64,000 nt of DNA, from the IMG/VR virus record IMGVR_UViG_3300031519_000002. One strand, given 5' to 3'. Within the stretch, counting starts at the first letter, position 1; every line of letters begins with the position of its first letter. The translations under genes and the position numbers were made by a program. The DNA comes from a virus. The notes beneath the pieces were generated by a model that made no database searches, was not told the origin of the DNA, and saw nothing but the letters and a program-made list of their open reading frames with translations. Below are positions 7,005 through 29,789 of the stretch, in pieces.

Positions 7005-7463
7005 ATGACTCAAGAAATAATTTGTAGTGGTGCATTGTTTTATTCCCTTAAAACAAAAAGATTCTTACTCTTACATCGCACCCAAAGTAAACAGAAGCAC
7101 GTATGGGGACTTGTTGGTGGAACTAATGGCAAGGATGAATTGCCGTGGCCTGCACTTGAAAGAGAAATACAAGAAGAAATTGGTGGCATTCCTAATATAA
7201 CAAAAACAATTCCTTTAGAAACATTTATAAGCACTGATGAAAAGTTTAGCTTTCATACGTATCTTGTAATAATTCAAGAAGAATTTATCCCAGAATTAAA
7301 TTATGAACATGATGGATATGCATGGGTATCTTTTGGAAGATGGCCAAAGCCCTTGCACATGGGATTACGTAACACGCTCCAAAGTAAAACTAATCAAACA
7401 AAATTTGAAACAGTTTTTAATCTAATAGACTATCTAGGACAGGAAAATAATGAAGGAAATTAA
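7005..7463 (+). CDS. Nudix hydrolase
   Basis: Nudix box GGTNGKDELPWPALEREIQEEIG. The likely start is MTQEII at 7005. Confidence 0.85.
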   Translation: MTQEIICSGALFYSLKTKRFLLLHRTQSKQKHVWGLVGGTNGKDELPWPALEREIQEEIGGIPNITKTIPLETFISTDEKFSFHTYLVIIQEEFIPELNYEHDGYAWVSFGRWPKPLHMGLRNTLQSKTNQTKFETVFNLIDYLGQENNEGN

Positions 7464-8955
7464 AAATATTACCATCGTCGGTGGCGGTACGGCGGCATGG
7501 CTAGCGGCCGCATATATTTCACGCAACATGTGGGACATTAGTCTAACAGTTATTGATAAAGAAGCAGGAAATCCTATTGGTGTTGGCGAAGCTACTGTAT
7601 TAACGTTCCCTGCATTTTTAAGAGATTGCGGCATTGATTTATCTGATTGGTTTCAAGCTGTTGACGGCACTTATAAGTCTGGGATTGATTTCCCAGGGTG
7701 GAAAAATCCTAAAGGATCTATATACCATCCGTTTTATTTAAATAGATCGTATCAAGAACACAACTGCACACAGTATGATGTATGGGCACAAAAACAAAGT
7801 GTAGACTTTAAGAAATCATCATTACCAACATTTGACGTAGCAATGGATAACAAAGTTGATATATGGGCATCGTTTTCTGCGTTAGCATATCATATCGATG
7901 CTGGTAAGTTAGTGAAACAATTAGCAAAACACTGTGGACAACATCTTACTTTAATTAAAAGTGACGTAGTTGACGTTAACAGAAACGACCAAGGTGATGT
8001 TGTAAGTTTAGGATTAAAAAACGGCACAACACATACTTCAGATTTTTATATTGATTGTACAGGTTTTGCATCAGTACTAAAAAAGCCAAAGCGTGTAGAA
8101 TTATTGGGCAACGGTAGACTGTTTACTAACACTGCTGTTGCAGGACATATTCCGTACGAAGATAAAGACGCCGAATGCACCCCTTATGTAAGTTGTCCTG
8201 CGGTTGATCATGGATGGATTTGGAAGATACCAACGCAAACAAGAATTGGTAGCGGTATGGTGTTTAATAAAGATATTACTGACATCGAAACAGCAAAACA
8301 ATATTTTTGTGATCACTGGAACGGAAGAATTAAGCCTGAAGATTTAAAAGTTATTGACTGGCAACCATACTACAGTGAAAACTTCTGGGAGGGAAATGTT
8401 GTATCACTAGGCCTAAGTGGTGGATTTATTGAGCCTTTAGAAAGTACTGGCATTGCTAGTATGACTACTGGTGTTTATAAATTAGTACAACGTATTCCCC
8501 AATATGCCTATACTCAAACAGATATTGATTCATACAATAAAGAAATGGCACATTGGTATGATGATGCTGTTGACTTTGTTAACAGTCATTATGCTGACAC
8601 AAAATGGGATACTCCTTTTTGGAATTATGTAAAAGACACACACGTCAAGTCAGACAAGCATAATTTCTATCAAAGATGGCTTAAAGATCCTAGTAGAAAA
8701 TTTTACACAAACGTCGATTCAATGACATTGTTCCATGCACCTAATTGGCATCTTTGGTTAATACAAATGGGATATCCTGTTAATAAAGATATATTAAATT
8801 TAAATGCGTTACAACTCAATGATATAAATCTAGACTTTGCTCGCCATGAAAAGATCCGTGGCATTACAAGTTTGTCTCATGCGGATGCTATTGAGTCTAC
8901 TAATTTAGGGTGCGATTGGGTTGCTCGAACAGAATCAAGAAATCAAGGAATATAA
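7450..8955 (+). CDS. Flavin-dependent (tryptophan-halogenase family) halogenase 1
   Basis: GGGTAAW, IGVGEAT, catalytic Lys in DGTYKSGI, WIWKIP, FIEPLESTG. Confidence 0.9.
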   Translation: MKEIKNITIVGGGTAAWLAAAYISRNMWDISLTVIDKEAGNPIGVGEATVLTFPAFLRDCGIDLSDWFQAVDGTYKSGIDFPGWKNPKGSIYHPFYLNRSYQEHNCTQYDVWAQKQSVDFKKSSLPTFDVAMDNKVDIWASFSALAYHIDAGKLVKQLAKHCGQHLTLIKSDVVDVNRNDQGDVVSLGLKNGTTHTSDFYIDCTGFASVLKKPKRVELLGNGRLFTNTAVAGHIPYEDKDAECTPYVSCPAVDHGWIWKIPTQTRIGSGMVFNKDITDIETAKQYFCDHWNGRIKPEDLKVIDWQPYYSENFWEGNVVSLGLSGGFIEPLESTGIASMTTGVYKLVQRIPQYAYTQTDIDSYNKEMAHWYDDAVDFVNSHYADTKWDTPFWNYVKDTHVKSDKHNFYQRWLKDPSRKFYTNVDSMTLFHAPNWHLWLIQMGYPVNKDILNLNALQLNDINLDFARHEKIRGITSLSHADAIESTNLGCDWVARTESRNQGI

Positions 8956-8956
8956 T

Positions 8957-10438
8957 ATGAAAATAGTTATTGTTGGTGGCGGAACTGCTGGATGGTTAGC
9001 CGCACTTATGATTAGTAAAATCAAACCAGAACATACAGTAACATGTATTGAAAGTTCTAAGATTGGCATCATTGGTGCTGGAGAAGGTAGTACAGGCGCA
9101 CTAACAAACATTATTCAAAATGTAATGTGGGACTTTGGAATTGATGAACAAGACTTTATTAAAGAGTGCGATGCAACAATTAAATTAGGCATTAAGCACA
9201 TTGGCTGGGGTCCTGATATTAATAAATCATACTACGGTCCGATTGATGGTACTCCGACTGGTGGGCAAGAATCTGACATTATTTTTCAACATGCATTAGG
9301 GTATAGAGAACAAGAGTTACTTCACCTTTCAACAGACTTGGGTTATAAAATACATCATAATAAAAATAGTTTTGTTGAACACGAAGGTAATCATTCATAT
9401 CATTTTGATGCACACAAAGTAGGAAAATATTTTAAAAAAGTCTGCACAGACGTAAAACACATTGACAGTGAAGTAAAAGATGTTATAATAGATAGTGAGC
9501 AAGGCTGGATTACTAGCTTAAACCTTACTAACGGACAGACAATAAGCGGTGATATGTTTATTGATGCTAGTGGATTTAATCGAGTGTTAATGAATGCAGT
9601 GGGCGGCAAGTGGAAAAGTTATAAAGAACAGTTGCCAGTTAATAGTGCATTGCCATTTATATTACCTTATGAGGAAGATGAAATTATTCAGCCAGTAACT
9701 AACGCATGGGCGCAAAATAACGGCTGGTGTTGGAATATTCCAACACTTAACAGACGAGGTTGTGGTTACGTATTCAGTGACGAGTTTGTAACGGCTGACC
9801 AAGCACATGCTGAACTTGAAAAAACTATTGGACGTAAAGTTGACCCAATTAGGCATATTAAATTTGATAGTGGTAGACAAGAAAAACTTTGGATTAAGAA
9901 CGTATTATCAATTGGCCTAGCTGGATCGTTTGCAGAACCATTAGAAGCAACTAGTATTCATACTACTATATTTCAATTAAAGCATTTTATATTTGGAACA
10001 TTAGGCCAAACAAGAGAAGACACTTGTCAAGAATTTGCAATAGACATGTATAATAAAACAAATGCACACATGTATGACGGATTGCGAGATTTTTTAATTG
10101 CACACTATACATGCGGCCGCAAAGATACAGAGTTTTGGAAGTACATTGATAGTGGTGCAACTAGTACAGAATTTGTTAAAACAATGCACGAAATGTGTAA
10201 ATTGCGAGTTCCTAACTATACGTTATTTCCAAGGCACGAAGGTAGTGCAGGATGGCCACTGTGGAGTTTTGTTTTAGCAGGAACCGGAAAACTAACAGAC
10301 ATAGTTGCTCAACAAGAGCTTAAATTCAATCTAACTGATCACAAAGCTGATGCCGAATACTCGTATCATGTGCAAGGCTATCATGAGAATAGTGAAAATT
10401 TACCAGACAATACACAGTATATAAAAGGTATGCAATAA
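8957..10438 (+). CDS. Flavin-dependent (tryptophan-halogenase family) halogenase 2
   Basis: GGGTAGW, IGAGEGS, DATIKLGI, WCWNIP, FAEPLEATS. The start is MKIVIV at 8957. Confidence 0.9.
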   Translation: MKIVIVGGGTAGWLAALMISKIKPEHTVTCIESSKIGIIGAGEGSTGALTNIIQNVMWDFGIDEQDFIKECDATIKLGIKHIGWGPDINKSYYGPIDGTPTGGQESDIIFQHALGYREQELLHLSTDLGYKIHHNKNSFVEHEGNHSYHFDAHKVGKYFKKVCTDVKHIDSEVKDVIIDSEQGWITSLNLTNGQTISGDMFIDASGFNRVLMNAVGGKWKSYKEQLPVNSALPFILPYEEDEIIQPVTNAWAQNNGWCWNIPTLNRRGCGYVFSDEFVTADQAHAELEKTIGRKVDPIRHIKFDSGRQEKLWIKNVLSIGLAGSFAEPLEATSIHTTIFQLKHFIFGTLGQTREDTCQEFAIDMYNKTNAHMYDGLRDFLIAHYTCGRKDTEFWKYIDSGATSTEFVKTMHEMCKLRVPNYTLFPRHEGSAGWPLWSFVLAGTGKLTDIVAQQELKFNLTDHKADAEYSYHVQGYHENSENLPDNTQYIKGMQ

Positions 10439-11586
10439 TGAAAGTATTAGTTATTGGCGATGTAATAATCGACAAATATATCTATGGCACTTCACAACGT
10501 TTAAGCCCTGAAGCTCCTGTACCTATTGTTAAACACTTACATGAAGTCGAAACACTTGGCGGGGCAGGACTTGTTTACGAAAATTTAAAAAGTTTAGGTG
10601 TTAATGTAACACTAATGGAATCTGATCATGGATACAGAAGTGTTAAGACCCGAGTCATTTGTGATGGTCATTATGTTACACGTATTGACGATGACAAACG
10701 TGCAAGCGGTAACGCAGTATTAGCTGATGTATTGTCTAATGACTTTTCGCAATACGAATATGTAATACTCAGTGATTATGACAAAGGTGTATTAGATAAT
10801 GCAAAAGAAATTATTGCACACATTAACAAATTTAATTGTAAAATAATTGTAGATCCTAAAGAACATGCTAAACATTATAAAGATGCGTGGTTAATAAAAC
10901 CTAATCATAGTGAGTTTACTAAGTTTGGATTTACAAGCTGGCAGGGTAATATCATTACAACTAATGCAGGCAATAATGTAGTTGCCACAATAGATAATGT
11001 AGATTACGATATTCCAGTTGAGCATGTAGAAGTGTCAGATGTTACAGGTGCAGGAGATTGTTTCTTGGCCGCATTTGTATACGGATTAACAAAGCAATAC
11101 AATTATAAGCATTGTTTAGAACTTGCCGTTAGGGGTTCTAGAGAAGCAGTTAAACATGTAGGCACACACTTGCTTACAGTAACTGATATTGAGGATACTA
11201 TTGTGTTTACTAATGGAGTATTTGATATACTACACATAGGGCATTTAAAGCTTCTTAGCCATGCTAAAACACTAGGTAATCGCCTAGTAGTGGGCATTAA
11301 CAGCGATTCCAGTGTTAAGCGATTAAAAGGTGATTTAAGACCCATTAACGATCAGCACACCCGCAAGGAAAGCCTATTAATGCTTGGTTTTGTAGACGAA
11401 GTAATAGTGTTTGAAGAAGACACTCCGTTGGAAGCAATCACCAAATTAGAGCCAAGTATTATAGTAAAAGGCGGTGACTATACAGTAGAGACCGTAGTAG
11501 GAAACGAGTTAGCCAACGTGGTTATATTTCCTATACTAGAAGGACATAGCACAACTTTAATAGTTGACACACTAAACAAAAGATAG
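10438..11586 (+). CDS. hldE: Bifunctional D,D-heptose-7-phosphate kinase / heptose-1-phosphate adenylyltransferase
   Basis: RLSPEAPVP, SDYDKG and DVTGAGD (PfkB kinase) fused to FTNGVFDILHIGH...KGGDY (nucleotidyltransferase). Confidence 0.92.
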   Translation: MKVLVIGDVIIDKYIYGTSQRLSPEAPVPIVKHLHEVETLGGAGLVYENLKSLGVNVTLMESDHGYRSVKTRVICDGHYVTRIDDDKRASGNAVLADVLSNDFSQYEYVILSDYDKGVLDNAKEIIAHINKFNCKIIVDPKEHAKHYKDAWLIKPNHSEFTKFGFTSWQGNIITTNAGNNVVATIDNVDYDIPVEHVEVSDVTGAGDCFLAAFVYGLTKQYNYKHCLELAVRGSREAVKHVGTHLLTVTDIEDTIVFTNGVFDILHIGHLKLLSHAKTLGNRLVVGINSDSSVKRLKGDLRPINDQHTRKESLLMLGFVDEVIVFEEDTPLEAITKLEPSIIVKGGDYTVETVVGNELANVVIFPILEGHSTTLIVDTLNKR

Positions 11587-11592
11587 TATAAT
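11564..11592 (+). promoter_or_regulatory. Perfect sigma70 consensus promoter upstream of hldD
   Basis: TTGACA (11564-11569), 17 bp spacer, TATAAT (11587-11592). Confidence 0.8.
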
Positions 11593-11603: not shown

Positions 11604-12437
11604 GTGAGAATGAAAGTATTAGTTACAGGATATAAAGGATTTATTGGGAGTTATATTTCCAATTACCTAACAGAACAAGGTCACGAAGTTGAAGGTTATG
11701 ACTGGGTAGAAAACGTTGTACCGCATGTTGAAGGGTATGATTGGGTTGTGCATTGTGGTGCAATTTCAGATACTACCGAACGTGATGTAGAAAAAGTGTG
11801 GCAACACAATTATGAATTTACATTAAGATTGTTACAAATTTGTGACCACTTTGGAACAAATATCCAAATAGCAAGTACAGCCGCAGTGTATGGTAACATG
11901 ACAGAGTTTAATGAATCTAGTGCAGTGTATCCACAAACACCGTATGCATGGAGTAAGTTTTTAGTTGACAAGTTCCTAAATGATAACGGCTACGATAGCT
12001 TTAGTATGAATGTACAAACTTTTAGATATTTTAATGTGTACGGACCCGGTGAAGGACACAAAGGCGATCAAATGAGCCTAGTTAGTAAGTTTCAAAAACA
12101 GGCTTCGCAAGATGGTGTAATTAAATTGTTTGAAGACAGCGACAAGTATTTTAGAGATTGTATTTGTGTACACGATATTGCAGTAATACAAGAAAAGCTA
12201 ATGCACACAGACGAAGCTGGCTTATTTAATATGGGCACTAACAAAGCGCCAAGTGTAGAAGAAGTTGCTAGAACAATAGCTAAAAAGTATGATGCAAAAA
12301 TTGAATACATTCCGATGCCAGATAAGTTAAAATCACAATACCAAGAATACACTTGTGCTGACAATGCTAAGTTACACAATGCTGTACCGATTAGACATTG
12401 GATGACTGTAGAGGAGTATATTAATGCAACCGACTAG
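11604..12437 (+). CDS. hldD: ADP-L-glycero-D-manno-heptose 6-epimerase
   Basis: TGYKGFIG, GAISDTTE, YAWSK, RYFNVYGPGEGHKG..MS, YQEYTCAD. The start is GTG 11604 or ATG 11610. Confidence 0.9.
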   Translation: MRMKVLVTGYKGFIGSYISNYLTEQGHEVEGYDWVENVVPHVEGYDWVVHCGAISDTTERDVEKVWQHNYEFTLRLLQICDHFGTNIQIASTAAVYGNMTEFNESSAVYPQTPYAWSKFLVDKFLNDNGYDSFSMNVQTFRYFNVYGPGEGHKGDQMSLVSKFQKQASQDGVIKLFEDSDKYFRDCICVHDIAVIQEKLMHTDEAGLFNMGTNKAPSVEEVARTIAKKYDAKIEYIPMPDKLKSQYQEYTCADNAKLHNAVPIRHWMTVEEYINATD

Positions 12438-12828
12438 ACTAGAAGGTAAGGTAGATAAAGGCTGGGGTTACGAATTAATTTGGGCCACTAACGAAAAATA
12501 CTGTGGAAAGATTATGGTGTTTAATCGAGTAGGCGCTAAGTTTAGTATGCATTTCCATAGGGAAAAGGACGAGTCTTGGTTTGTAAACAATGGCAGATTC
12601 TTACTTAATTATATTGACACTGATACTGCTGAGTACAAAAGTCAAGAACTTGTAGAAGGTTCAGTATGGCATAATCCGCCATTAATGCCGCATCAGTTAG
12701 TATGTATGGAAGCTGGAAGTAGTATTACTGAAGTAAGCACTCCTGATAGTGTAGAAGATAATTATCGCATTGGTCCAGGTGATAGCCAAAAGATAAAGCC
12801 AGCAATGGAAATTATAGATCAAGAATAG
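12424..12828 (+). CDS. Cupin, phosphomannose-isomerase / sugar-isomerase-like
   Basis: KGWGYELIW, SMHFHREKDESW, PH.L, EVSTP....DNYR cupin metal motif. Confidence 0.75.
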   Translation: MQPTRLEGKVDKGWGYELIWATNEKYCGKIMVFNRVGAKFSMHFHREKDESWFVNNGRFLLNYIDTDTAEYKSQELVEGSVWHNPPLMPHQLVCMEAGSSITEVSTPDSVEDNYRIGPGDSQKIKPAMEIIDQE

Positions 12829-12895: not shown

Positions 12896-15800
12896 TTAAG
12901 CCTGCGCTTCACCCCATTTAATAATAATGTTAGCATCTAATGCTTCACCAGTCGTCTTATAAACGTTTAGTGCTAGTACGTCAGGACCATTTGGGAAAGT
13001 ACCTCTACCACCTAGTGTAGTATTTGTAAGTTCTTTCAACTGTCCTAGATCTAGTGTTGCACGTTCACCCGGTGTCGCAATAAATGAGAACACAGTTTCT
13101 CCTGGCTGTGCAAATGGTGGTTGACTAAACTCAAAGTTAAATAAATCACCTGCTGACAATGTGCCATTATAGGAGTTGTTAAACGTAACCTTATAGTATT
13201 CAATACCGCCACTGCCTTGATTACCAAACAATAAAGGTCCTTCAATATTTGAAACACTTGACGAAGCTGGAAAAGTAATATCACTTTGGTTAGTTGGAGC
13301 ACCAGCTGAATTGCCTAATGATGTACCACCTTTGGCACCTGCCGCGTCCCAAACACTCTTAGTAAAGAGTGCAAATGCTGAGTTAACAGTATCGCCGCCC
13401 TTTTGGAATGATTGTGAAGCACCGTTACTACTGTTAGCGTTTGGATTGCTTGAGAAGTAAACTAAGTATCTACCATAAACAGTTTGGTCAATAATCTGCT
13501 GGATTGTAGTTCCTGCAGGGAAAAAGTCACCACCGCCTGCGCCATCAGCAATTTGATCACCTGCTGTTAAGTTAGCTGTTTCCCAGCTATCTTGAGCAAA
13601 GTAGCCATAACTTCTGTTTGTTCTAAAGTTCCACCATGGCATCAATTGTGCCGATGTTGTAACCTGGGCCATAACTGCCGCTGTTGTATATGTTGCTGAA
13701 TCACCACTGTTCCAGTTAACACTACCACCGGAAGCAACCTGTGCAAAACTAGGTTGTCCACCTTGTGCAAGTCCTGCAAGTCCTGTCCAACCAATGTCAC
13801 CTGGGTTAAGTGGATAGTTCTGTGGGTTAAGCACACCTTCAATAACAATACCACCTCTAATTGGTGTATCGTCATCAGCCGTACCATCTGATGTAATTTC
13901 TAAGCCTTGCATAAGCAACTGAGCTCTGTTTAGTAGCTCTCTATCACCTAAGTCGCCAACAATAGCATTACTAACACTAGGTGCTAGTCTTAATAAGAAC
14001 GCTGTTTGTTTTGTTGTACTAACACTTAGTCCTGTTTCTGTGTATGAGAAAATATAACCACGGTCATCATCAAAGCCGCCATCTGTAATAAACGCACTAC
14101 CCCAGTGACTAATCAAAGGTGTAATAGTATTACTAATTAAAATAACACCTGTTCTTGCAATGTGTGAAGTTGCAGGCCCTGCATTATACTGTCTAGTAGC
14201 ACCAGCTTGGAAGTTTGTAAGTGTTGTGCCTCTAGTAACGTTTGTAAGATTTTTGTTAACATGGTCAATAGATGTATAACTAATTAACTCGTTATCAATG
14301 TAGACTGTTCCTGCATCTGGAAAGAATTTAGATTCAACTACTGGAATAATTGTTTCACTAGCTGTAATATCTGTGCGTAATGCGGAGTTAGATCCTTCGT
14401 TAGTAACTTCATAACGCACTGGTAAGTTACCTGAACGCATAAATGCTTCTGTGTTTACGTTTGAGTTACGCATTCTGTGACAGAATACAAAGTTACCATC
14501 TGCACCACGTAGCATCCAGTCAATAAAGCCTGCACCATACCAACTGTATTGAATACCAATCATCTGCATGTATCTAACATCCATATTGTATCCACTTGGT
14601 CCTGTGCCGTCTAACCTATCTAAGTTCCACTCTTCTTGCAGAACTTTTTTATCTGTAATCAAGTTAACCTTTGCCGCTAGTACGCTATTAACACCTCTAT
14701 AATCTGGTGTTACAGTCATCTGTGTTTGTGAATCAACGTTCGAAACAACGTGTGTCATTCCTTTGATAACAATTCTATCACCAGCTTTTAACTGATCTCT
14801 AAATCGTGTATTGTTTCCTATCATCAAGTTACTATCTGTATTAATTGCTACAGTTCCTGCAACTTGTTTTGTACTTGTACGCTGTGCTACACTAACGTTT
14901 GATCCATCAAACTCCCAATAAATTCCGTTTTGATCATCAAATACACCTGAACGCACTGTTGCGCCATGCCATCCAACAACGGTCATTTGTGCCGCAAATC
15001 CTAAGATTGCAGTAGTAGCGCCTAGTCGTCTAGTTGAAAGACATCTTAAACTTCTTTCATCTATAATTTGTGTAATTACATATTCGCCGTTGTAGCCTGC
15101 TGTTTCAACACCAATAAGTCTAATCTTTCCACCAACTTGGGCGCCGTGATCGTTGTCATCTGTTGTAATAGTAACAATAGCACCAATGCCTGTTCCGTCT
15201 GCTGTAATAGTTCTTACGTCATAACTCGGAGCAAAAAGTGCACCAGTTGTATACATAATACCTTTACCTGACTGATATCTAATATATTTTTTACTTTGAC
15301 GTATTGCTTGCGCTCCGTGCTGTGGACCGCCTGTACCTAGTTGTACACCACCGTCATATGGTCTGTGAATAAAGAAGCTATCTGGACGTAAGTACACGTT
15401 ACCTTGGATTCTATCTTCAGTACTGTCGCCTGCTGTAAATTCTAAAATAGAACCAGGTGCTCTTGTATTGTATCTAATTTTCTTAGTGGTTGGAATATTA
15501 ATAGCAAGGAATGATCCTGATGCTAGTGCGTGATTATTTGTTCCGCCATCATCAGAGTTAACATCAACTAAGAAAGTATCTCCTGGAACAATACCATGTG
15601 AGTAAGGCCATGTTACTTCGATAGTAGCTAGTGCCTCAAAGTTAACACTTGAACTTGAACTAATTTCTGCTGTTGTAAAGTCTGTTAGTGTAACGCCGTT
15701 TACTAAGCTAAGGCCGCCTCCACCTGCACCAGTACCTGTGATAGTAACTGTTGATAGTCCGCCACTGCCGTCTACTGATGCTACTACAATAGTTGCATCG

Positions 15801-20889: not shown

Positions 20890-20891
20890 TC

Positions 20892-21407
20892 TTACACCTT
20901 ATCAAATGTTATGTTCGTATTATCAAAATACGTACTTGTTGCATCAAAAGTATTTATTCCAGAGCCTTCCTCGACACTAGACACGTCTGCAATAATAGCA
21001 GGCGGAGTCAATTGATGTATTGTTTTTGCATACGTTGCATGATATATTAATTTAGCGCCAGAGTATATACTACTTGACGGATTAACGTGTATCTTGCAAA
21101 TGCTTTCGTCTACAGTAACCGATAATGCAATTAGTTCTTGGTTAATACTTGATCTTCCAAATACACTTGCTACTGCTCTATCAGGTCTTGCAACTACTGA
21201 AAGTTGCATAATTTCTTTTTCGTTTGAATCAAATTCAACTGTGATTTGATACGTTACACTACTGAATTCGCCAACATGCCATTGATCCATAATCGTGTTG
21301 TAGTGACAGCCGATCCAATTACCTTTATAACTAAAGCTAGATCTGTCCGGCAGATGAATTGTTTGGTTTGAGCCTTTTGTAAATAGGCCTGTTAGAAGTT
21401 TATTCAT
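20892..21407 (-). CDS. Putative virion structural protein
   Basis: Beta-rich ORF heading a late operon; GGAG RBS. Confidence 0.55.
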   Translation of the reverse strand: MNKLLTGLFTKGSNQTIHLPDRSSFSYKGNWIGCHYNTIMDQWHVGEFSSVTYQITVEFDSNEKEIMQLSVVARPDRAVASVFGRSSINQELIALSVTVDESICKIHVNPSSSIYSGAKLIYHATYAKTIHQLTPPAIIADVSSVEEGSGINTFDATSTYFDNTNITFDKV

Positions 21408-22028: not shown

Positions 22029-22029
22029 G

Positions 22030-22890
22030 TTACGGTCTCCATCTATCATCTGACCAGCCTACTTGTTCTTTATTAAACCAATCTAGTTCAAAAAGTAAAA
22101 TATCATCAGTGGCTGTTAATGTTTGCTTCCATGTTTCAACAAACTCTAAAGTTTTATTATTTAATTTGCAAACGTGTTCTTGTATAAAATTTGCGGCTTC
22201 GTGTGTGAGTGGATGCACTTCGGGCTGACTCATATGTAAATGTTCTGGATTTTTACTAGGCACACTTGTTGGTCTTGTTTTAAAAAACTCGTCGTCGACT
22301 CCAAAGCCTAGTGCATTAAGTATTGGTGGACAAGTAGTTTTAATATCATCTTTGTATTTTTCTAGTATTGCTCTACAATCTTCTAATTCTAAATATTTGT
22401 TTTTAGTATTAAATTCTTTACTAAGTTCGTTCCAGCCCTCTGTTGGCTCTCTAAAGCCAGTAGATATAACATTACATCCAATATTTTCTAATGCTTTGTG
22501 TGTACTGCTTATTAATGCACAGTCTCTCATTGTTGCCCATATAGGATCTGCATAGTCCCAAGAATTTTCATAACGATAATTGTTTACAATAAATGCTTCA
22601 TCAGTATTATTAGCGTTAAAGTTACCTGGTGTCCACCAACCTCGGCCCATATGATATCTGTCTTCGCGGAAAAAACTAGACCACTGTAGTAAGATGATAT
22701 CGTCTTTATTAAATTTGTGTTCAGTGTTTGCTTCCCATAGTCGGGTTGATATGTATTGATTACCTGCACCACTACGTCCCCAGTTCTCTCCAACAGTGGC
22801 ACCTTCTTCTACGTAATGATGTATTAATACATCTGCCCAAGTGGGATAAAAATACTGTGTTAGACTGCATCCAAATGCAAATACCCTCAT
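22030..22890 (-). CDS. SGNH/GDSL-like hydrolase or acyltransferase-like protein
   Basis: FAFGCSLT (block I-like), NWGRSGAGN (block II-like), late EVHP. Confidence 0.55.
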   Translation of the reverse strand: MRVFAFGCSLTQYFYPTWADVLIHHYVEEGATVGENWGRSGAGNQYISTRLWEANTEHKFNKDDIILLQWSSFFREDRYHMGRGWWTPGNFNANNTDEAFIVNNYRYENSWDYADPIWATMRDCALISSTHKALENIGCNVISTGFREPTEGWNELSKEFNTKNKYLELEDCRAILEKYKDDIKTTCPPILNALGFGVDDEFFKTRPTSVPSKNPEHLHMSQPEVHPLTHEAANFIQEHVCKLNNKTLEFVETWKQTLTATDDILLFELDWFNKEQVGWSDDRWRP

Positions 22891-24350
22891 ACTAGATGCC
22901 TTAATAACTCTAGCATTAACTTATGTGGGATTGTTTTTGATCGATCAAAATTTATTTTGTGCTTACAAATCTCATCAATTTGCATTAGTACTTCATCGGG
23001 CAACATATTATATTGTGTTAAAATGCTATCAGTATCAAACAAATCTAATCCATGCATTACTAGTGCAACATTATATTCGTTAAACAACACTTTCTTTGTA
23101 TATGATGTAAAATCATCAGCAATGGGCAATCGCGTCTTCCACATTTTTAAATTTTCTTGTAGTGTATGTGGCAATGGAGTACTTGCTACTTTGTTCCAAA
23201 ACGGCGTATCACGCCTATTGCTAACATAGTGCAATGCAATAAAGTCTCTAACATTTTCCATTATAGCATTAACTTCTATGTTATATCGATTAATACTTTG
23301 TTCATTATAATTAATCATACGACGAGCTAATAAGAATGCTTGATTGATACTAGTACCAATACTACTTGCTTCTAAAGGTTCTACAAAACTAGCACTAAGG
23401 CCAATAGCACAAACATTTTTAATCCAAGGACGATCAACTGCACCTGGGTCAAATTTAATATGTTTTGCTACGTCAATACTATGTCCTAAATATTTTTCAA
23501 CTTCTATTTGTGCCTGTTCTGCTGTAATAAAGTTACTGTCAAAAATATACCCGTTTCCTTTACGCCCTTGTACCGGTATACGAAACATCCAACCAGCATC
23601 CATTGCTTTAGCTAGAGTCCATAACGGAGTTTCTTCTTCTTGGGGAGTAGGAAATACAATAGCTTCCTTCATTAGCAAATGATCACTATAACTATTCCAA
23701 GTTGCTCCCAGCTTTCCAATTAATAGTCTAGAAAATCCTGTACAATCAATATAAAAATCATAATTATATGTTTTAGTTTTACTTGTAATGTAATCTATAC
23801 CTTGGGTGTTGACTGCTACATCTACTATTTCATCATCAAATACATTACATCCTTTTTCAATTGCAAACTTAGTTAAAAAATTATTTAATTTTTGTGTATT
23901 AAAGTGATATTGACTAACTCCAGTATCGTTTGGACGCTCATCTATAAATTTATTAAATGGTACATTGTTATTCCAAAGATAATCACCCGTCATGTCTCTT
24001 GGATTGCATTGTTCACCAATAAGTTTTGCAAATGCGGCAGGTAATCCTAAATGTTCAAACACAAAAGGAGAATGTACACTTTGAAGATATGGTTTATCTC
24101 CCCAATCTTCAAACATAATTCCTGTTTTGAATGTTGCATCACATTCATTAATAAGTTGTGCAGTCTGTATGCCAACATGATCCATAAATACTGACCAATG
24201 TTCTGTTGTCCCTTCACCAACTCCAATAGTTCCAATTTTTTCTGATCGGATAATGTCTACTTGATAGTTTGGATAAGTGGTTTTTAGAATTAATGCTGAT
24301 ACAAATCCTGCTGTACCGCCGCCTACTACTGCTATTTTCATGTCATTCAT
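22887..24350 (-). CDS. Flavin-dependent (tryptophan-halogenase family) halogenase 3
   Basis: GGGTAG, IGVGEGT, DATFKTGI, WMFRIP, FVEPLEASS. Confidence 0.88.
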   Translation of the reverse strand: MNDMKIAVVGGGTAGFVSALILKTTYPNYQVDIIRSEKIGTIGVGEGTTEHWSVFMDHVGIQTAQLINECDATFKTGIMFEDWGDKPYLQSVHSPFVFEHLGLPAAFAKLIGEQCNPRDMTGDYLWNNNVPFNKFIDERPNDTGVSQYHFNTQKLNNFLTKFAIEKGCNVFDDEIVDVAVNTQGIDYITSKTKTYNYDFYIDCTGFSRLLIGKLGATWNSYSDHLLMKEAIVFPTPQEEETPLWTLAKAMDAGWMFRIPVQGRKGNGYIFDSNFITAEQAQIEVEKYLGHSIDVAKHIKFDPGAVDRPWIKNVCAIGLSASFVEPLEASSIGTSINQAFLLARRMINYNEQSINRYNIEVNAIMENVRDFIALHYVSNRRDTPFWNKVASTPLPHTLQENLKMWKTRLPIADDFTSYTKKVLFNEYNVALVMHGLDLFDTDSILTQYNMLPDEVLMQIDEICKHKINFDRSKTIPHKLMLELLRHLV

Positions 24351-24918
24351 CTAATGTATACCATCCCGTTACAATGTACTTACTTCCTTTGTAAATAGGA
24401 TTGCCGCGATGTGGATGGGTAAATGCTGTAGGGAAAATACTTAGCTTGCCTGGTTCGGGCTTAACTTTAACTCCTTGGTATAGGAATTCTGTTTCGCCGC
24501 CTTCTTCTACAGCATTTAAGTAAACTGTGTAAGCAAGTACCCGCGAACACGAACTTAGTGATGCGCTTTCACAATGCCAAGCATGATAACCTTGGTGCGG
24601 CATAGTCTTTTGTATACTCATTCCTTTAGGAGAATGCTGTAAAACGTTACCTAAACTTTCATACTTAGTACGATACTTTTCTGTGTACACTTTATTAAGA
24701 GTAGCATAGAAATAACGACACAAGTCATCGTCTGCATGGTATCTTGAATTATGATTTGCCCAATCCATAATAATTCTTTCGTCTTGATTCTTTGTACTGC
24801 TTTCAAGGTTTGTTAATTGACTGGCAGACATTTCTTCAAAGCGTTTAATTATTTGCTTACACCAATCAATCGGAAAAACATTCGAGTATTCTTCAAGTCC
24901 GTCAAAATTATCTTTCAT
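24343..24918 (-). CDS. 2OG-Fe(II) oxygenase (prolyl-4-hydroxylase-like)
   Basis: GYHAWHCE, YLNAVEEGGETEF, FP..FTHPHRGN, KYIVTGW. Confidence 0.85.
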   Translation of the reverse strand: MKDNFDGLEEYSNVFPIDWCKQIIKRFEEMSASQLTNLESSTKNQDERIIMDWANHNSRYHADDDLCRYFYATLNKVYTEKYRTKYESLGNVLQHSPKGMSIQKTMPHQGYHAWHCESASLSSCSRVLAYTVYLNAVEEGGETEFLYQGVKVKPEPGKLSIFPTAFTHPHRGNPIYKGSKYIVTGWYTLDE

Positions 24919-24929: not shown

Positions 24930-25649
24930 CTATATAAAGAATTGTTGATTAATTCTATAATTTTTATCTGTAAACATGCTTGGCTTTACATATGCCGAGT
25001 GTAGCAAGGATTGATTGTACAATACCATTCTATTATACTGCATTGGAACCATTCCAATCATTTTCCAATCATGTGAACTATCAGTTATGTATTTTGTTAC
25101 TTTAGTAGTACCAGTAACATCCATTCCGATATCTCCGTTTATTAGTTGTACTCGGTCAGTAAAGCATGTTTCGCCTCCAAACTCGTAAAAGCTAGTGCCG
25201 CCGTTACACTCGTTAGCATTGTTTAAGTAAATTGTACTAGCAAGATTTGTTCCTGAAGGATTATCTTGATGCGGCACAAGTGGCGGCAACTTATCTGACT
25301 GCATAACATTAACCATAAAGGTTGCATTCATAAAACTATTTTGCATGTATTCTTGTGGTTTATGTTCCATAATCTCTGGAAAATATGTTCTACTCAATTG
25401 ATCAAATGCCCAAGCCATACCGCTTAACTCATAAAATGCATTTACTCTCTCGGCAGGATTGCCTCCTCTAATACGTTTATTAGTTGATGCTGGAATATCT
25501 AATGCAAGTTGTCGCACCATATCTGGATTCTTATAAAAATTATCAACTACTAATACTGGAACTTTATGTTGTCCAAATCTCCATAGCCTTGCATCAAAGT
25601 CTCGGTTAATATCAAATGTTTCTACTTCGTTAATTGTATTTTTATTCAT
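24930..25649 (-). CDS. DUF6445-like 2OG-Fe(II) oxygenase-fold protein
   Basis: VVDNFYKNPD.VR, PHQD, IYLN...GGTSFY, YNRMVLYN..LLHS. Confidence 0.7.
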   Translation of the reverse strand: MNKNTINEVETFDINRDFDARLWRFGQHKVPVLVVDNFYKNPDMVRQLALDIPASTNKRIRGGNPAERVNAFYELSGMAWAFDQLSRTYFPEIMEHKPQEYMQNSFMNATFMVNVMQSDKLPPLVPHQDNPSGTNLASTIYLNNANECNGGTSFYEFGGETCFTDRVQLINGDIGMDVTGTTKVTKYITDSSHDWKMIGMVPMQYNRMVLYNQSLLHSAYVKPSMFTDKNYRINQQFFI

Positions 25650-26244
25650 TTATACGTTCCTTAATAATAAAATTAGCACTAATTGTTGCTCTTACTTCTG
25701 TGCTATTGTTAGGCGAAACATAATGTTCTAATGTGCTTGGAAAATATATAATGTCACCTTCGTCTAGTGGGGGTGTTATTCTATTGTTAAACTTAAAAGG
25801 CTGTGTAGTTAACTTTGGTAAGTCTGATTGATGGAAATAATCATATGCATTTTTGTAAAATGTAAAGTTTCCGCTATTAGTAGGCGTGTGCATCATATAT
25901 GCACAACTAATAATAGATTCTCCAGCATGATTGTGAACTTCTTGGAATTGCCCATTGGTGTATCTATTGAGCCAACATTCAATCCTGTAATCTCTTGGAA
26001 GATCTAGTTCGTAAATTTCCAAGTACTCATTAAGACCTGCAATAGCCGACTTAATAAACTGTTGCCAAGGTAAGCTATCAGCATCTCTATTACCGAAAGT
26101 TGTATCTACGTTACTATTCCATGTTGGAACTTCACTAAAGTACTCATCGCCTTTGAGTACTTCAGTAAAATCCGCTTGTATATCTACATGGTTGGCTAAC
26201 TTTGCTTTATATACCGGTACAGAATATATAGATTGATGTGTCAC
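25642..26244 (-). CDS. TIGR02466-like 2OG-Fe(II) oxygenase
   Basis: WLNRY...HNH...S..Y, EGDIIYFPSTLEHYV, R.TISAN. Confidence 0.8.
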   Translation of the reverse strand: MTHQSIYSVPVYKAKLANHVDIQADFTEVLKGDEYFSEVPTWNSNVDTTFGNRDADSLPWQQFIKSAIAGLNEYLEIYELDLPRDYRIECWLNRYTNGQFQEVHNHAGESIISCAYMMHTPTNSGNFTFYKNAYDYFHQSDLPKLTTQPFKFNNRITPPLDEGDIIYFPSTLEHYVSPNNSTEVRATISANFIIKERINE

Positions 26245-28073
26245 TAGTTCTTCATTTCGATCATTACACTATATTCTGGCAAATAGCAGTATTCCATTTC
26301 ACTATTGTAAAGTGTACGAATTGCATCATCTAGTGTTTCTACTAACGGCTCACCACCTAAGTTAAAACTAGTATTAAAGATAATTGGCACATTGGTTTGC
26401 GCATAAAATTCAGTAATAATATCATAATAGTGCTTATTTTGTTTTCTTGTTACAGTTTGTATGCGACATGTTCCATCAACATGTATAATACTAGGAATTA
26501 AATCTTGTTTACCTTCTTGGCAATCCATTGCATACATCATATGCGGACTTTCTTCCAGTCCTCGCATATCAAACCACTCACTTGCATGTTCAGCAAGGAT
26601 AGTTCCTGCAAATGGACGGAAATATTCTCTACGCTTAACACTATTAACATGATCTTTACCGTTCGGGTCAGTTGGATCATACATAATACTTCTGTTACCT
26701 AATGCACGTGGGCCGTTTTCACTTTTTCCTTGAAACATTGTTACAATGTTTTTATTACGAATTAGATCAACAACTTTTTTATTATCTGCTTCTACAACTG
26801 TTGCTCCGTATTTGTCAGCAACTTCTTTAATTTCTTCTGCGCTATAATGATATTCAAATCCTTCGTAGATTGTTTCTGCTAACGGACGTACTTTAGTATC
26901 TTTAGTTGTTTGATGGTACATCATCATTGCCGCACCGATTGCAGTGCCTGCATCGTTACTAACTGGCTCTACATACAAAGTAATACCTTCTTTTTGTAGC
27001 TTATCAAGATACCAATAGTTAGCAACACAGTTTAGTGCATAGCCACCACTTAGTACAACATTTTTGTTGCCACTCATTTCAACTGCTTTCATAATAAGAC
27101 TTAAAACTTCTTGTTGTGATTCTGTTTGTACAGCATATGCTAAGTCTCGACGGTTTTCTAGTGTAGTTAAATCAACTTTACTATTAATTACGTCTTCTGA
27201 TGTGTCAAGATAATCATATTTCCCTTCATTAATAACAGCCGCATTAGGATATGTTGGAACAACAACATTTCTATCACTTGTTCTCCACTTGCCACCATTG
27301 CCATCTGTATATATTGTTGGAATATTACTATTAGGTTTGCCATATGGAGCAAGTCCCATAGTTTTTCCTGCTTCAATTGGTTGGAAGCCACAATATTGTG
27401 TTACTGCTTCATATGCTTTTACAATACCTGCTGTATCGTCAAGTACTAGTTCGTGATATCCTTCTTCACCTTCTCTATCTGACGGAATATACGGAATACA
27501 TGTACTTGGGAACGGGCCATTTCCGCCTTGATGTTTATACAATGTTTTAAATGCATCGGGATATGCACAATTAAAAATACTTTCAGTTTCCCATGTCATA
27601 AATTCATCGTTAAAAATACCAGTATTGATATTCATAGGTATAAATGTTCCAGCACCATCAACAACTACTGCTGTTGCTGTTTCCATACCTGATCTATAAA
27701 ATGCACAAGCCGCATGTAACTTATGATGTACACTAGATAGATCAACTACTTGTCTATGTTCGTATTTTCCATCTTGCGAGTATGCGCTGTCTGAACGATC
27801 AATTAATCCTAACTTACGTGCTAGACCAGTATACATGTCTCCACCACTAAAATCAATTCTACTTGAATCTGCTAATGGTTGCGTGTGTGCAACTACCAAA
27901 TAATCAAGTTTATCAGTGTAGTCTAAAAATTTAATCATTGCGGCTAGCGGCCCACCGTCATATTTTTTACGTGTTAGTCGTTCTTCTTCGATTGCAAACA
28001 CAATCTCTCCGTCTTTAAGAAGAACAGCGCCGCCGTTATGTCCTCTTGTAATTGCTCCAATCCACTGCGTCAT
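26244..28073 (-). CDS. O-carbamoyltransferase (NodU/CmcH/TobZ family)
   Basis: EEERLTRKK, HHKLHA, VVDGAG, GKTMGLAPYG, SGGYALNCVAN, GPRALGNRS, KRREYFRPFA, NTSFNLGGEPLV. Confidence 0.93.
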   Translation of the reverse strand: MTQWIGAITRGHNGGAVLLKDGEIVFAIEEERLTRKKYDGGPLAAMIKFLDYTDKLDYLVVAHTQPLADSSRIDFSGGDMYTGLARKLGLIDRSDSAYSQDGKYEHRQVVDLSSVHHKLHAACAFYRSGMETATAVVVDGAGTFIPMNINTGIFNDEFMTWETESIFNCAYPDAFKTLYKHQGGNGPFPSTCIPYIPSDREGEEGYHELVLDDTAGIVKAYEAVTQYCGFQPIEAGKTMGLAPYGKPNSNIPTIYTDGNGGKWRTSDRNVVVPTYPNAAVINEGKYDYLDTSEDVINSKVDLTTLENRRDLAYAVQTESQQEVLSLIMKAVEMSGNKNVVLSGGYALNCVANYWYLDKLQKEGITLYVEPVSNDAGTAIGAAMMMYHQTTKDTKVRPLAETIYEGFEYHYSAEEIKEVADKYGATVVEADNKKVVDLIRNKNIVTMFQGKSENGPRALGNRSIMYDPTDPNGKDHVNSVKRREYFRPFAGTILAEHASEWFDMRGLEESPHMMYAMDCQEGKQDLIPSIIHVDGTCRIQTVTRKQNKHYYDIITEFYAQTNVPIIFNTSFNLGGEPLVETLDDAIRTLYNSEMEYCYLPEYSVMIEMKN

Positions 28074-28118
28074 AGTTTTATCTTCCTTTGTTATGTTTTA
28101 ATTTTATTAGTTCGATTA

Positions 28119-28730
28119 TTAGTCAAAAGTAGGTGTTGGATTATAATTAAAATCAACTACAAATACTTTTCTTTCATTAAGTGTAGGATATGTTCCATGA
28201 AATACCCTACCGTCCATAATTACCATTTTACCTGCTTGTGTAGGATGTGTACGGTATTGAATAGTATTATCTTCTGTAGGCTGTAATGTAAATAAATTTC
28301 CAGCATATGGAAGATTAATATCTGCGTCACAATCATCTAAAAACAATATAGCTGTTAATTGCTTTCCTAGTATATGATCATGTAGTAAACTGTATGCACC
28401 CGTTGGATATCTTACACCCCATGCTTTCTTAAACTGCCCAACATTAATCGGTAATTGTTGTAATTGAAATTTTATAAAACTTTGAAATTCTAGTCTAGGA
28501 TCAATATCAGTTGGATAATCCATATTAGGCTTATAAAATTGGACGCCACCACTGAATCCTGTATTTTTGTGTCCTTCATTTTCGTCTTTAAATAAAGCTA
28601 AAAACTTTTTCCACTTAGGATAGTAAATATCATCTATAATCCAAGTTTCAATTTGATTAGGCAATACTGCTTTAGGTAGCTCAAGCGGTTCTGTATATGA
28701 ACTATTTAAGAATTGTCCCGGATCTGACAT
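28119..28730 (-). CDS. 2OG-Fe(II) oxygenase-like protein
   Basis: LHDH...LTAILFLD, GKMVIMDGRVFHGTYP, R.VFVVDF. Confidence 0.65.
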   Translation of the reverse strand: MSDPGQFLNSSYTEPLELPKAVLPNQIETWIIDDIYYPKWKKFLALFKDENEGHKNTGFSGGVQFYKPNMDYPTDIDPRLEFQSFIKFQLQQLPINVGQFKKAWGVRYPTGAYSLLHDHILGKQLTAILFLDDCDADINLPYAGNLFTLQPTEDNTIQYRTHPTQAGKMVIMDGRVFHGTYPTLNERKVFVVDFNYNPTPTFD

Positions 28731-29789
28731 TTATTTTCCGGTCCTGCCTAAAATTTGTGCTGATTGAGAGCCGTGTGTTACACCATTTGAATGGACAACT
28801 CCGTGTGTAGGACAAACTTCACCTTCTTGTTGCTGTGCAACATAGTTACCAGTATATGATCTTGGCTTGCCTAAACGTTTGCGAACACTTGTAATAATCT
28901 TCTTAAAACTTTCATCGTTTAATTCCATTACTTCATCGTTAAATCGTTCAACTGCATCTTCCATTGTAAGTCTAATAGGACTAAACTTGCGTCTACCCTC
29001 ACCTAAATCAACAATGTCAAAGTCTGGACTATCAGGATATGAAATATTAATAGGGTAAGTACTGCCAATAACACTTGTACACGTAGTACCGAGTGCTTTT
29101 GCCATATGTTGTCCTAAACTATCGCACCCAATAAAATGATCTGCAATTTGAATAATGCTAGACCAAACTCTTACATCACTAATTTGTGGAATTGCAATCG
29201 GCACTGTCGGAGTTTCTTCGATTGTAATTGGAAATTCGCTCATTACAACAACAGCATAATCATCACGTAAGTCTTTACAAATACGAATTACATCGTTGAG
29301 GTGGAAACTTCTAGAAGTGCTATCAATTACAAAGTCTCCCATGTTCTCTGCGGTTCTACCAAATGGTTGGAATACTACAACTTTGTCTTTTTTAGTCATT
29401 GCTTTAATTTCTTCAATGACTTTAAAGCCTTGCACCATTTCTTGCTTGTTCATATGTATTGTTGGGTCTGTTAACTCTCTAAGGCCTTCGTTATTAATTG
29501 CAATATCAAATGCCTGTGCTAAACTACATTTTTGATTATAGTATTCCCAAACTCTATATGGTTCTGGTGAGAAGCAATCCCTGTCTTTAATGTAATCTTT
29601 AAACAAGTTTTTATGCCAATTGTCGTATGCTAGTTCGTGTAATACAGGATGTCCTTTATAAAAATCCATTCCTCCTTCACAAACAATAATAAAATCTTTG
29701 TCTGTTTCGTATAACTTTTCAAATGCAGGAATAGATGCAACTACTCTGCCGGCGCCACCGTTTATAAAATATGCTTTTTTGCGTGTCAA
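28731..29789 (-). CDS. GT9 (ADP-heptose heptosyltransferase)-like glycosyltransferase
   Basis: ADHFIGCDSLGQHMAKALG matches the GT9 DS-x2/3-H-x-A-x-A-L-G nucleotide-sugar motif; N-terminal GGAGRVVASIPA. TTG start with AGGAG. Confidence 0.7.
   Translation of the reverse strand: MTRKKAYFINGGAGRVVASIPAFEKLYETDKDFIIVCEGGMDFYKGHPVLHELAYDNWHKNLFKDYIKDRDCFSPEPYRVWEYYNQKCSLAQAFDIAINNEGLRELTDPTIHMNKQEMVQGFKVIEEIKAMTKKDKVVVFQPFGRTAENMGDFVIDSTSRSFHLNDVIRICKDLRDDYAVVVMSEFPITIEETPTVPIAIPQISDVRVWSSIIQIADHFIGCDSLGQHMAKALGTTCTSVIGSTYPINISYPDSPDFDIVDLGEGRRKFSPIRLTMEDAVERFNDEVMELNDESFKKIITSVRKRLGKPRSYTGNYVAQQQEGEVCPTHGVVHSNGVTHGSQSAQILGRTGK

Follow-up and report, generated by a model that had tools for sequence, protein, structure and literature searches.

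A GT9-like protein and a carbamoyltransferase at the core of a putative fibre-decoration module with ADP-heptose genes in marine phages

Why would a marine phage carry genes for an activated heptose, a glycosyltransferase-like protein and sugar-tailoring enzymes among its tail genes? The question is raised by a stretch of 64,000 nucleotides from the IMG/VR virus record IMGVR_UViG_3300031519_000002, hereafter the window. An earlier note, made from the letters of the window, had proposed that hldE, hldD and gmhB, a transferase of glycosyltransferase family 9 (GT9), a carbamoyltransferase and a series of halogenases and oxygenases form a system for virion decoration or for a small molecule. We assigned gene identities from the open reading frame listing and from Pfam, NCBIfam and PHROG scans of the window proteins, and compared about 175 related viral loci overall. 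Our preferred answer, which we hold tentatively, is that a conserved part of this gene set is a phage-specific module for O-heptosylation and carbamoylation of the phage's own fibre proteins. The arrangement is not new, as the note had taken it to be: it is already described in cyanophages, in the passages dealing with these clusters in PMC1079782, PMC3037559 and PMC7824862. To this the present analysis adds a fold for T4-GC302 (the GT9-like protein) with an active site that is not typical; it also delimits the core, indicates that the family is confined to phages, brings in the vibriophage context and finds the block on a backbone that is not of cyanomyovirus type.

The GT9-like gene (28731-29789, minus strand; 352 aa, TTG start; T4-GC302/phrog_8954) opens a run of nine minus-strand genes that abut or overlap, in the order GT9-like, 2-oxoglutarate (2OG) oxygenase-like, carbamoyltransferase, 2OG-FeII_Oxy_5, DUF6445, 2OG-FeII_Oxy_3, halogenase 3, a 286-aa protein and, last, GmhB. 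Its surroundings were compared in two sets of loci. The first (82 loci) comprises 80 IMG/VR loci with close GT9-like homologs together with S-SSM7 and P-SSM2; the second (80 loci) was found by diverse alignment, at 30-52% identity to the GT9-like protein of the window and with flanks of at most 8 kb. Gene order in the first set is nearly invariant: fibre, p108, p149, Cys-rich paralogs, chaperone, GT9-like gene, (2OG gene), carbamoyltransferase. A carbamoyltransferase gene lies near the GT9-like gene, mostly directly downstream, in 79 of the 82 close loci and in 63 of the 80 distant ones, and the chaperone gene stands upstream in 73/82 close loci. Of the immediate upstream neighbours in the distant loci (n = 61), those that can be recognised belong most often to fibre-assembly chaperone families. 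Near the distant GT9-like genes are also found HldD (32/80), HldE (30/80), GmhB (23/80) and a cupin that co-occurs with HldE/HldD (30/80), and some lineages, such as L067, L075 and L127, have HldE, HldD, cupin and GmhB contiguous with the GT9-like/carbamoyltransferase pair. Halogenases are near the GT9-like gene at 4 of the 80 distant loci and 2OG-type oxygenases at about 10 (2OG_a 6, 2OG_b 5). The conserved synteny that the note had proposed as a check therefore holds for the GT9-like/carbamoyltransferase/heptose core but not for the halogenases and oxygenases. On gene content and order, then, the conserved core can be defined as the fibre genes, the chaperone, the GT9-like protein and the carbamoyltransferase, with HldE, HldD, cupin and GmhB nearby; halogenases, oxygenases and the 286-aa protein are best regarded as lineage-specific accessory genes.

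The GT9-like family numbers about 3,955 protein clusters when grouped at 90% identity, and a whole-library profile search gave 510 clusters at 50%. When one genome per species was scanned for 185,579 prokaryote species, 15 GT9-like loci (L166-L180) were retrieved, on contigs of metagenome-assembled genomes (MAGs) labelled Methanobacteriota, Actinomycetota, Marinimicrobia, Flavobacteriales and others. Phage fibre genes flank all 15 (two of the source contigs measure 335 kb and 153 kb), and these contigs are evidently mis-binned phage DNA. The family thus appears restricted to phages, as judged by a pattern-based scan that distant cellular homologs may escape. A shortened homolog of 244-283 aa, annotated as hypothetical, occurs in N4-like vibriophages (vB_VspP_SBP1 and the K479 group), where it is located between the tail-fibre and large tail-protein genes (L083, 6998-7732; L165, 5887-6738) and keeps the N- and C-lobe motifs of the family. 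No heptose genes are annotated in the inspected stretches of these vibriophages, and their hosts are expected to make ADP-heptose. Virion decoration is the best fit to these data because the family is found only in phages, because its neighbour is invariably a fibre chaperone and because the vibriophage homolog lies between tail genes.

Is the GT9-like protein a glycosyltransferase at all? It has no Pfam match even at E 1, it scores 19.9 bits (E 2.6e-4) against NCBIfam RfaQ, whose cut-off is 467 bits, and a profile of its family gave chance-level matches to sirtuins only among PDB sequences. An AlphaFold 2 (AF2) model was built from 23 homologs, with a predicted local distance difference test score (pLDDT) of 76; its top Foldseek matches (E 5e-9) are 3tov, TibC, WaaC and WaaF. 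The VIA comparison gave Z scores of 21.0 for 3tov, 18.6 for WaaF, 17.4 for WaaC and 16.9 for TibC, with GT9 members at 16.8-21.0 and other GT-B enzymes at 11.7 or less, and both VIA and Foldseek find its two-lobe GT-B fold closest to the solved GT9 members. In the C-lobe, hhalign against E. coli WaaC places phage D223-S224...H228 on WaaC D261-T262...H266, so that phage D-S-x-G-Q-H pairs with D-T-G-L-S-H and a D-S/T-x-x-x-H motif is kept; its D and H are invariant in 29 diverse family members. In HepI (WaaC), D261-T262...H266 serve in binding of the heptose and of the alpha-phosphate (bioRxiv 10.1101/2021.06.16.448588). The GT9 likeness claimed in the note is therefore upheld by fold and donor motif, whereas sequence profiles, in Pfam and PDB alike, do not make it a member.

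The N-lobe is less orthodox. The motif that follows strand 1 reads G-R-V-V-A-S-I-P-A in the phage protein and G-D-V-L-H-T-L-P-A in WaaC, without gaps, and the invariant phage R15 falls at WaaC D13 in this by-eye alignment of a short motif, made without superposition. Asp110 of TibC corresponds to the WaaC D13 position, where the phage family has Arg. The catalytic Asp of both the LPS (lipopolysaccharide) and the AAH/TibC-type enzymes, the two kinds of heptosyltransferase that the note named as known, is thus absent. On the model, we consider it a putative heptosyltransferase, heptosyltransferase-like on the donor side and canonical in neither the LPS nor the autotransporter branch. An Arg in the catalytic Asp position is also what one might expect if the protein were no transferase but a structural or assembly factor of the fibre with a nucleotide-sugar-binding fold, like PnsB1 in the NADH dehydrogenase-like (NDH) complex of chloroplasts, the heptose and carbamoyl genes then serving another glycosyltransferase or purpose. 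GT9-like NDH subunits do rank among the best structural matches (Z 17-18), and the truncation of the vibriophage homolog to 244 aa, between tail proteins, points the same way. Nevertheless, D223, S224, H228 and other lobe-interface residues are invariant over the 510 clusters at 50% identity, and a purely structural role would not explain why the gene is so tightly coupled to a sugar carbamoyltransferase and a pathway for ADP-heptose; we regard it as very improbable. A more specific form of the fibre-decoration proposal, possible but doubtful, is that a phage-only, Arg-bearing branch of the GT9 fold heptosylates the tail-fibre adhesins of the phage itself and that the carbamoyltransferase caps the sugar; the odd active site could then mean an odd linkage, for example to Cys of the fibre paralogs.

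The constant partner of this protein is a 609-aa O-carbamoyltransferase of NodU/TobZ/NovN type (26244-28073, minus strand), in which both a Kae1-like N-terminal domain (Carbam_trans_N, PF02543) and a YrdC-like C-terminal domain (Carbam_trans_C, PF16861) are found. Its PDB relatives are 7xb6, NovN, TobZ and GdmN (E 1e-42 to 4e-51).

The donor pathway is split between the two strands. A fused enzyme of HldE type, joining a kinase for heptose 7-phosphate to an adenylyltransferase for heptose 1-phosphate (10438-11586, plus strand; 382 aa), contains both domains, PfkB and CTP_transf_like, with their GAGD and HxGH motifs, and matches NCBIfam HldE at E 2.4e-79 and 267 bits, below the equivalog cut-off of 521 bits. 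It is followed by an HldD-like ADP-heptose 6-epimerase (11604-12437, plus strand; 277 aa) that is 35% identical to E. coli RfaD over its full length (E 3e-45), has an N-terminal domain shortened by a deletion of about 30 aa, and keeps the S, YxxxK and later K residues; its best PDB matches are ADP-heptose 6-epimerases, with 1eq2 at E 5e-40. The GmhB-like heptose-1,7-bisphosphate phosphatase (21465-22049, minus strand) carries a DxDGT motif and matches NF006506 at E 5.8e-39 with 133 bits, the cut-off being 178 bits. The presence of hldE, hldD and gmhB, called in the note, is thus borne out by Pfam and NCBIfam and by the identity to RfaD; as the HldE scores lie under the equivalog cut-offs, heptose is the probable rather than the certain substrate of the HldE-like enzyme. 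HldE is fused in the window, kinase before adenylyltransferase, whereas the published cyanophages have it split and in reversed order (L001, 26648-27875; L002, 22912-24046), at only about 35% identity. The two may thus have been acquired independently, or one gene may have replaced the other, and the service of two HldE forms, fused and split/permuted, in the same module argues for selection on function.

No GmhA, the sedoheptulose-7-P isomerase of SIS fold, was found among the window proteins scanned or in relative contigs of 262, 146 and 124 kb, which are incomplete. The GmhA step may be supplied by the host or by the metal-binding cupin (T4-GC307; 12424-12828, plus strand), annotated as 'cysteine dioxygenase', which matches phrog_7851 at E 5.7e-35, carries an HxHxxxE...H motif and otherwise shows weak matches to oxalate decarboxylase and WbuC. 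The motifs, as we take it, resemble those of type II phosphomannose isomerases, and the cupin is possibly a sugar-phosphate isomerase. In S-SSM7 and P-SSM2 it always adjoins genes annotated as 'phosphoheptose isomerase' that encode about 111-114 aa (L001, 28708-29043; L002, 24024-24368), roughly 60% of the usual length of GmhA; beside these short genes, too, the cupin may be the working isomerase.

What would receive the sugar? Directly upstream of the GT9-like gene lies a gene for a 262-aa protein that resembles tail-fibre assembly chaperones (29909-30697, minus strand; Phage_tail_APC E 8e-7; phrog_9740, 8746 and 4912). Beyond it, in tandem, stand three paralogous Gly/Cys-rich fibre proteins of 278-279 aa (30727-33273, minus strand), recognised by model and Foldseek, each with a Gly content of 16-20% and 30-31 Cys; homologs down to about 35% identity keep many of these Cys positions, and metal binding, or disulfides formed after release, are candidate roles for them. 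The AF2 model of the Cys/Gly-rich protein (pLDDT 71) has the cyanophage Pam3 fibre as its best Foldseek match (E 6e-7), then Bxb1 tail-tip proteins and ALK glycine-rich domains, and Atlas neighbours of the paralogs bear Gly_rich_2. Given their likeness to the Pam3 fibre and to Bxb1 tail tips, the paralogs count as virion fibre proteins and plausible acceptors. They are followed by p149, p108 and two giant fibre proteins of 1619 and 1857 aa (33307-44603, minus strand), the giant fibres (34134-44603) each having four to five CBM_5_12 carbohydrate-binding repeats near the N-terminus. When a complex between a Cys-rich fibre paralog and the GT9-like protein was predicted, the score was 0.01 where the mark is 0.32, which speaks neither for nor against binding.

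From these elements we infer the sugar product, its carbamoylation and the acceptor, as follows. HldE, GmhB and the HldD-like epimerase would make ADP-heptose from a heptose 7-phosphate, perhaps helped by the metal cupin, which may also act as the isomerase in place of GmhA. The product of the first gene in the late-promoter operon, the GT9-like enzyme, would pass the heptose to the acceptor, and the NodU/TobZ-type enzyme would then O-carbamoylate that sugar. The likeliest acceptors would be the tail-fibre or adhesin proteins encoded directly upstream, either the Gly/Cys-rich paralogs or the giant fibres, modified in the cytoplasm before or during fibre assembly. In the window, halogenases, oxygenase-like proteins and the 286-aa protein could further tailor the same product as accessories.

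Expression signals fit this timing in part. The sequence ATAAATA, resembling a late promoter, occurs 28 nt upstream of the GT9-like start codon (29812-29818, minus strand), and a terminator-like hairpin with a 12-bp stem followed by TTTTTT lies between the chaperone gene and the operon (29859-29888, minus strand). In the window, ATAAATA is seen 14 times against 26.7 expected; 12 of the 14 copies are on the minus strand and most lie in short intergenic gaps, 14-41 nt before structural gene starts. Such depletion within genes has the signature of a T4-type late promoter. Late promoters, announced in the note for the enzyme genes at large, are accordingly found at the GT9-like operon and before the chaperone, p171 and fibre genes, but not in the plus-strand enzyme block, which has no ATAAATA of its own. 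There, a sigma-70-type consensus (TTGACA-17-TATAAT, 12/12 matches; 11564-11592, plus strand) sits in the 3' end of hldE, just before hldD and the cupin gene, and host RNA polymerase could therefore express some of the donor pathway early. DNA hypermodification was considered as a target and set aside on the late-type promoter and structural context. The operon DNA is present, at 98-99% of sampled words, in metagenomes of marine and brine origin that come from at least nine studies. Metatranscriptome contigs (four runs, two studies) cover 21-29 of the 30 bins of the region; such RNA contigs give no strand, ends, level or gene ranking and, with DNA carry-over possible, do not prove transcription.

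Such genes were historically read as 'LPS genes', in the relevant passages of PMC1079782, PMC3037559 and PMC7824862, and an enzymatic pathway acting on the host envelope has to be weighed. Late in infection, carbamoyl-heptose would then be placed on a glycan of the host surface, be it LPS core, O-chain or some other polysaccharide, where it would block superinfection or the sticking of progeny to debris, and the genes would travel with the fibre genes through co-evolution of receptor binding and masking. WaaC and WaaF are among the closest folds, and a GT9 enzyme, a carbamoyltransferase and heptose are the exact combination of the Pseudomonas inner core. We nevertheless find this remodelling unlikely. 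The LPS of marine Synechococcus, WH8102 included, contains neither heptose nor Kdo (PMC4515613), and it was on WH8102 that Sf-FS3, a carrier of the module, was isolated. A host LPS of this kind offers no classical GT9 acceptor, and this gives the phage a reason to bring the donor pathway with it. Furthermore, flippase, polymerase, ligase and lipid-carrier enzymes are all missing from the core module, the pattern-based scan did not find the GT9-like family in cellular genomes, the catalytic Asp of the LPS heptosyltransferases is absent, the N-lobe of the GT9-like protein is not basic (net charge -2) and the vibriophage homolog lies between tail genes.

A different target is suggested by the accessory enzymes. 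Three flavin-dependent halogenases are encoded at 7450-8955 (plus strand; Trp_halogenase E 2e-88), 8921-10438 (plus strand; E 2.7e-94) and 22887-24350 (minus strand; E 3.4e-95); mutual identities are 28-35% (30% between the first two), and all three have the catalytic Lys in a K-x-G-I context. Halogenases 1 and 2 keep WxWxIP and halogenase 1 has GGGTAA, whereas halogenase 3, whose PDB matches are Trp halogenases and VirX1, keeps GxGxxG and reads WMFRIP instead of WxWxIP. Pfam domains confirm these three halogenases and the carbamoyltransferase, as announced in the note. The four 2OG-Fe(II) oxygenases that it listed are supported by Pfam in three cases: a 2OG-FeII_Oxy_3 protein (24343-24918), a DUF6445 protein (24930-25649) and a 2OG-FeII_Oxy_5 protein (25642-26244), all on the minus strand. 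They are mutually unrelated in sequence and of the double-stranded beta-helix oxygenase type; pattern search gave candidate metal motifs, HxD/E in the first two and HxH-type in the third. The fourth, a divergent 203-aa protein encoded between the GT9-like and carbamoyltransferase genes (28119-28730, minus strand), is weak, with phrog_81 at E 1.8e-8 and Pfam at E 0.11 at best. The 286-aa protein (22030-22890, minus strand), read as SGNH-like in the note, has no such support: no Pfam, NCBIfam, PHROG or PDB-profile match was found, its Atlas neighbours are viral without exception, and resemblance to SGNH is confined to an N-terminal G-C-S-L-T motif; S9, N44 and H226 are invariant, but the spacing of block V is atypical. 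At distant loci (e.g. L085-L164), the neighbours of the GT9-like gene include FkbM-type methyltransferases, sulfotransferases and GT2-family glycosyltransferases where the window has halogenases and oxygenases. Lineages thus seem to exchange one accessory tailoring set for another.

These enzymes could together make a halogenated, hydroxylated and carbamoylated metabolite that bears heptose, with ADP-heptose used as in septacidin/hygromycin-type pathways, and serving as an antibiotic, toxin or signal. The solved relatives of the carbamoyltransferase all act on secondary metabolites, and the halogenase and oxygenase genes are translationally coupled in the window operon. On the other hand, the core has no scaffold-forming enzyme (nonribosomal peptide synthetase, polyketide synthase, ligase or precursor peptide), and, of the distant loci that keep the GT9-like, carbamoyltransferase and heptose genes, most have no halogenases and oxygenases. 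A late promoter and a structural context are unusual for a metabolite acting during infection, and the vibriophage homolog stands alone among tail genes. A small molecule seems to us, on balance, an improbable product.

Do the genes belong to one system? Enzyme blocks are interleaved with structural genes, as claimed: gp15, a gp9/10-like connector, giant fibres with CBM_5_12 repeats and the chaperone were all confirmed. On the plus strand, genes for a virion protein (4329-5486) and a gp15-type tail-sheath stabiliser (5486-6991) precede a Nudix hydrolase gene, recognised by profile (6906-7463), and the enzyme block that follows converges on the minus-strand structural and enzyme genes. Between the two enzyme blocks, the open reading frame listing and profile scans define four minus-strand structural genes (12896-21407), for a 1980-aa fibre-like protein, a 185-aa protein, the gp9/10-like baseplate-fibre connector (19414-20889; T4_gp9_10_N, phrog_677 E 1.5e-91) and a 171-aa protein. 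The best Nudix homologs adjoin the gp15 gene in jumbo phages of GAP32, PA5oct and Rak2 type that have no heptose genes; the Nudix gene counted in by the note is thus present but is excluded from the system as a gp15 neighbour in module-free phages.

The backbone is of jumbo type. The best matches of the portal (60732-62459), at 46-51% identity, are Phosso, Atu_ph07 and Rak2/GAP32-type jumbo phages, and gp15 is closest to PA5oct and Phosso. No psbA gene was found in a relative contig of 262 kb, estimated to be 73% complete. A T4-like cyanomyovirus was ruled out on this jumbo-type portal and gp15 and the psbA-less relative, and from its genes the window would derive from an uncultured marine jumbo-type myovirus with a Rak2/Atu_ph07-like backbone. 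The fibre/GT9-like/carbamoyltransferase block is nevertheless common to this phage and the Kyanoviridae: the GT9-like protein is 60% identical to its S-SSM7 homolog and the carbamoyltransferase 66-67% identical to those of Sf-FS3 and S-SSM6a. As the block is more similar to cyanomyoviruses than the portal is, it seems to move together with the fibre genes.

If the region were a hypervariable island inserted among structural modules and holding unrelated auxiliary genes, several of which act independently, this would account for the unrelated Nudix gene and for two enzyme blocks 8.6 kb apart with different promoter types, and it recalls the 'stuffer DNA' idea of Sullivan 2010 (PMC3037559); halogenases, 2OG oxygenases and carbamoyltransferases are each common in cyanophages outside this context. 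We give this explanation little credit. The core is kept together on two phage backbones and at sequence identities as low as 30%, and nine of the genes overlap or abut.

Several observations weigh against modification of the fibres. An insertion hot spot that was inherited, instead of function, could explain why the genes keep their place between the fibre and neck modules. Known substrates of NodU/TobZ-type enzymes are small molecules and oligosaccharides, not glycoproteins. The replacement of the catalytic Asp (WaaC D13, TibC D110) by Arg may mean a different chemistry or acceptor, or lost activity. The lineage of the window is without gmhA, S-SM2, S-T4 and P-TIM68 have heptose genes without a GT9-like gene, and the promoter consensus at hldD is of an early type. 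In favour of fibre modification count the specifically GT9-like fold together with the linkage to carbamoyltransferase and heptose genes, and the late-type promoter and own terminator that frame the operon.

The module is abundant and cosmopolitan, and its function has been debated since 2005, with LPS genes, stuffer DNA or a metabolite as the readings. If the branch of Arg-bearing enzymes does act on adhesins, no heptose-based system of virion glycosylation would precede it; it would occur widely among marine myoviruses and also in N4-like vibriophages, with halogenases and oxygenases adding further chemistry in some lineages. With the fibre as target, host range and decay of marine phages would depend on a further variable, the glycan decoration of receptor-binding proteins, and the enzymes could be put to use as new means to heptosylate and carbamoylate proteins. 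Should a metabolite or the host surface be the target instead, the module would represent a new form of phage-driven ocean chemistry. Whichever target holds, the GT9-like/carbamoyltransferase pairing is a compact and directly testable system.

Among known systems, the nearest are the 'LPS gene clusters' and the second cluster, for modification of sugars and amino acids, in the cyanomyoviruses P-SSM2, S-SM2, S-SSM7 and S-SSM6a, with the same gene families, order and post-fibre position as the window: T4-GC302 is the GT9-like protein, 303 the carbamoyltransferase, 304/305 an adenylyltransferase and a kinase, 307 the cupin and 308 the epimerase, with halogenase and 2OG genes interspersed in both. 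Sullivan termed such genes LPS clusters (2005, PMC1079782; 2010, PMC3037559), noted the co-occurrence of T4-GC 304, 305, 307 and 308 and, in the later paper, raised 'stuffer DNA' as a possibility. Iyer 2010 predicted secondary-metabolite or capsule-decoration roles for cyanophage halogenase/oxygenase arrays, and the part of Iyer 2021 (PMC7824862) on the S-SSM6a carbamoyltransferase cluster makes the same prediction for it. In the records and passages covered, T4-GC302 figures only as a hypothetical protein, with no glycosyltransferase family assigned. Unlike the cyanomyoviruses, the window has a fused HldE, no gmhA-like gene, three halogenases and a jumbo-like backbone, and its heptose genes sit across the fibre/baseplate block.

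In the Pseudomonas core, the 7-O-carbamoyl group of HepII is attributed to the putative WapO (PMC8005017). The window shares with WaaC/WaaF and WapO the GT-B fold (Z 17-21), the D-S/T-x-x-x-H motif and the pairing of ADP-heptose with a NodU-family carbamoyltransferase. In contrast to WaaC/WaaF, the phage protein has no PF01075 match, carries Arg at Asp13, has a non-basic N-lobe and belongs to a phage-only family, and the known hosts of module-bearing cyanophages lack a Kdo-lipid A acceptor. Among the accessory enzymes, the cyanophage halogenase VirX1 (PDB 6qgm) shares its family with the window halogenase (E 7.7e-42), which bacterial Trp halogenases match with higher scores. The two-domain architecture of the phage carbamoyltransferase is that of TobZ, NovN, GdmN and NodU; these act on antibiotics or Nod factors, whereas the phage enzyme has a heptosyltransferase-like partner in a structural module.

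In mycobacteriophages, glycosyltransferases encoded beside structural genes modify capsid or tail proteins, reportedly using hexose-type sugars and enzymes of other glycosyltransferase families. Neither a heptose donor pathway nor a carbamoyltransferase is known from these systems. TibC and AAH, of the bacterial autotransporter heptosyltransferase (BAHT) type, heptosylate adhesins in the cytoplasm (PMC4358343). The phage protein differs from TibC by the absence of an Asp110 equivalent and of the N-terminal beta-barrel (the model starts straight at the N-lobe of the GT-B fold, its alignment with TibC setting in at residue 91), by the lack of an evident beta-hairpin thumb, and by three invariant Cys with no CxxC pair pattern in place of a four-Cys iron finger. 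It shares with TibC and AAH the GT9-type core (Z 16.9), and cytoplasmic O-heptosylation of an adhesin is the very mechanism that we propose for the phage.

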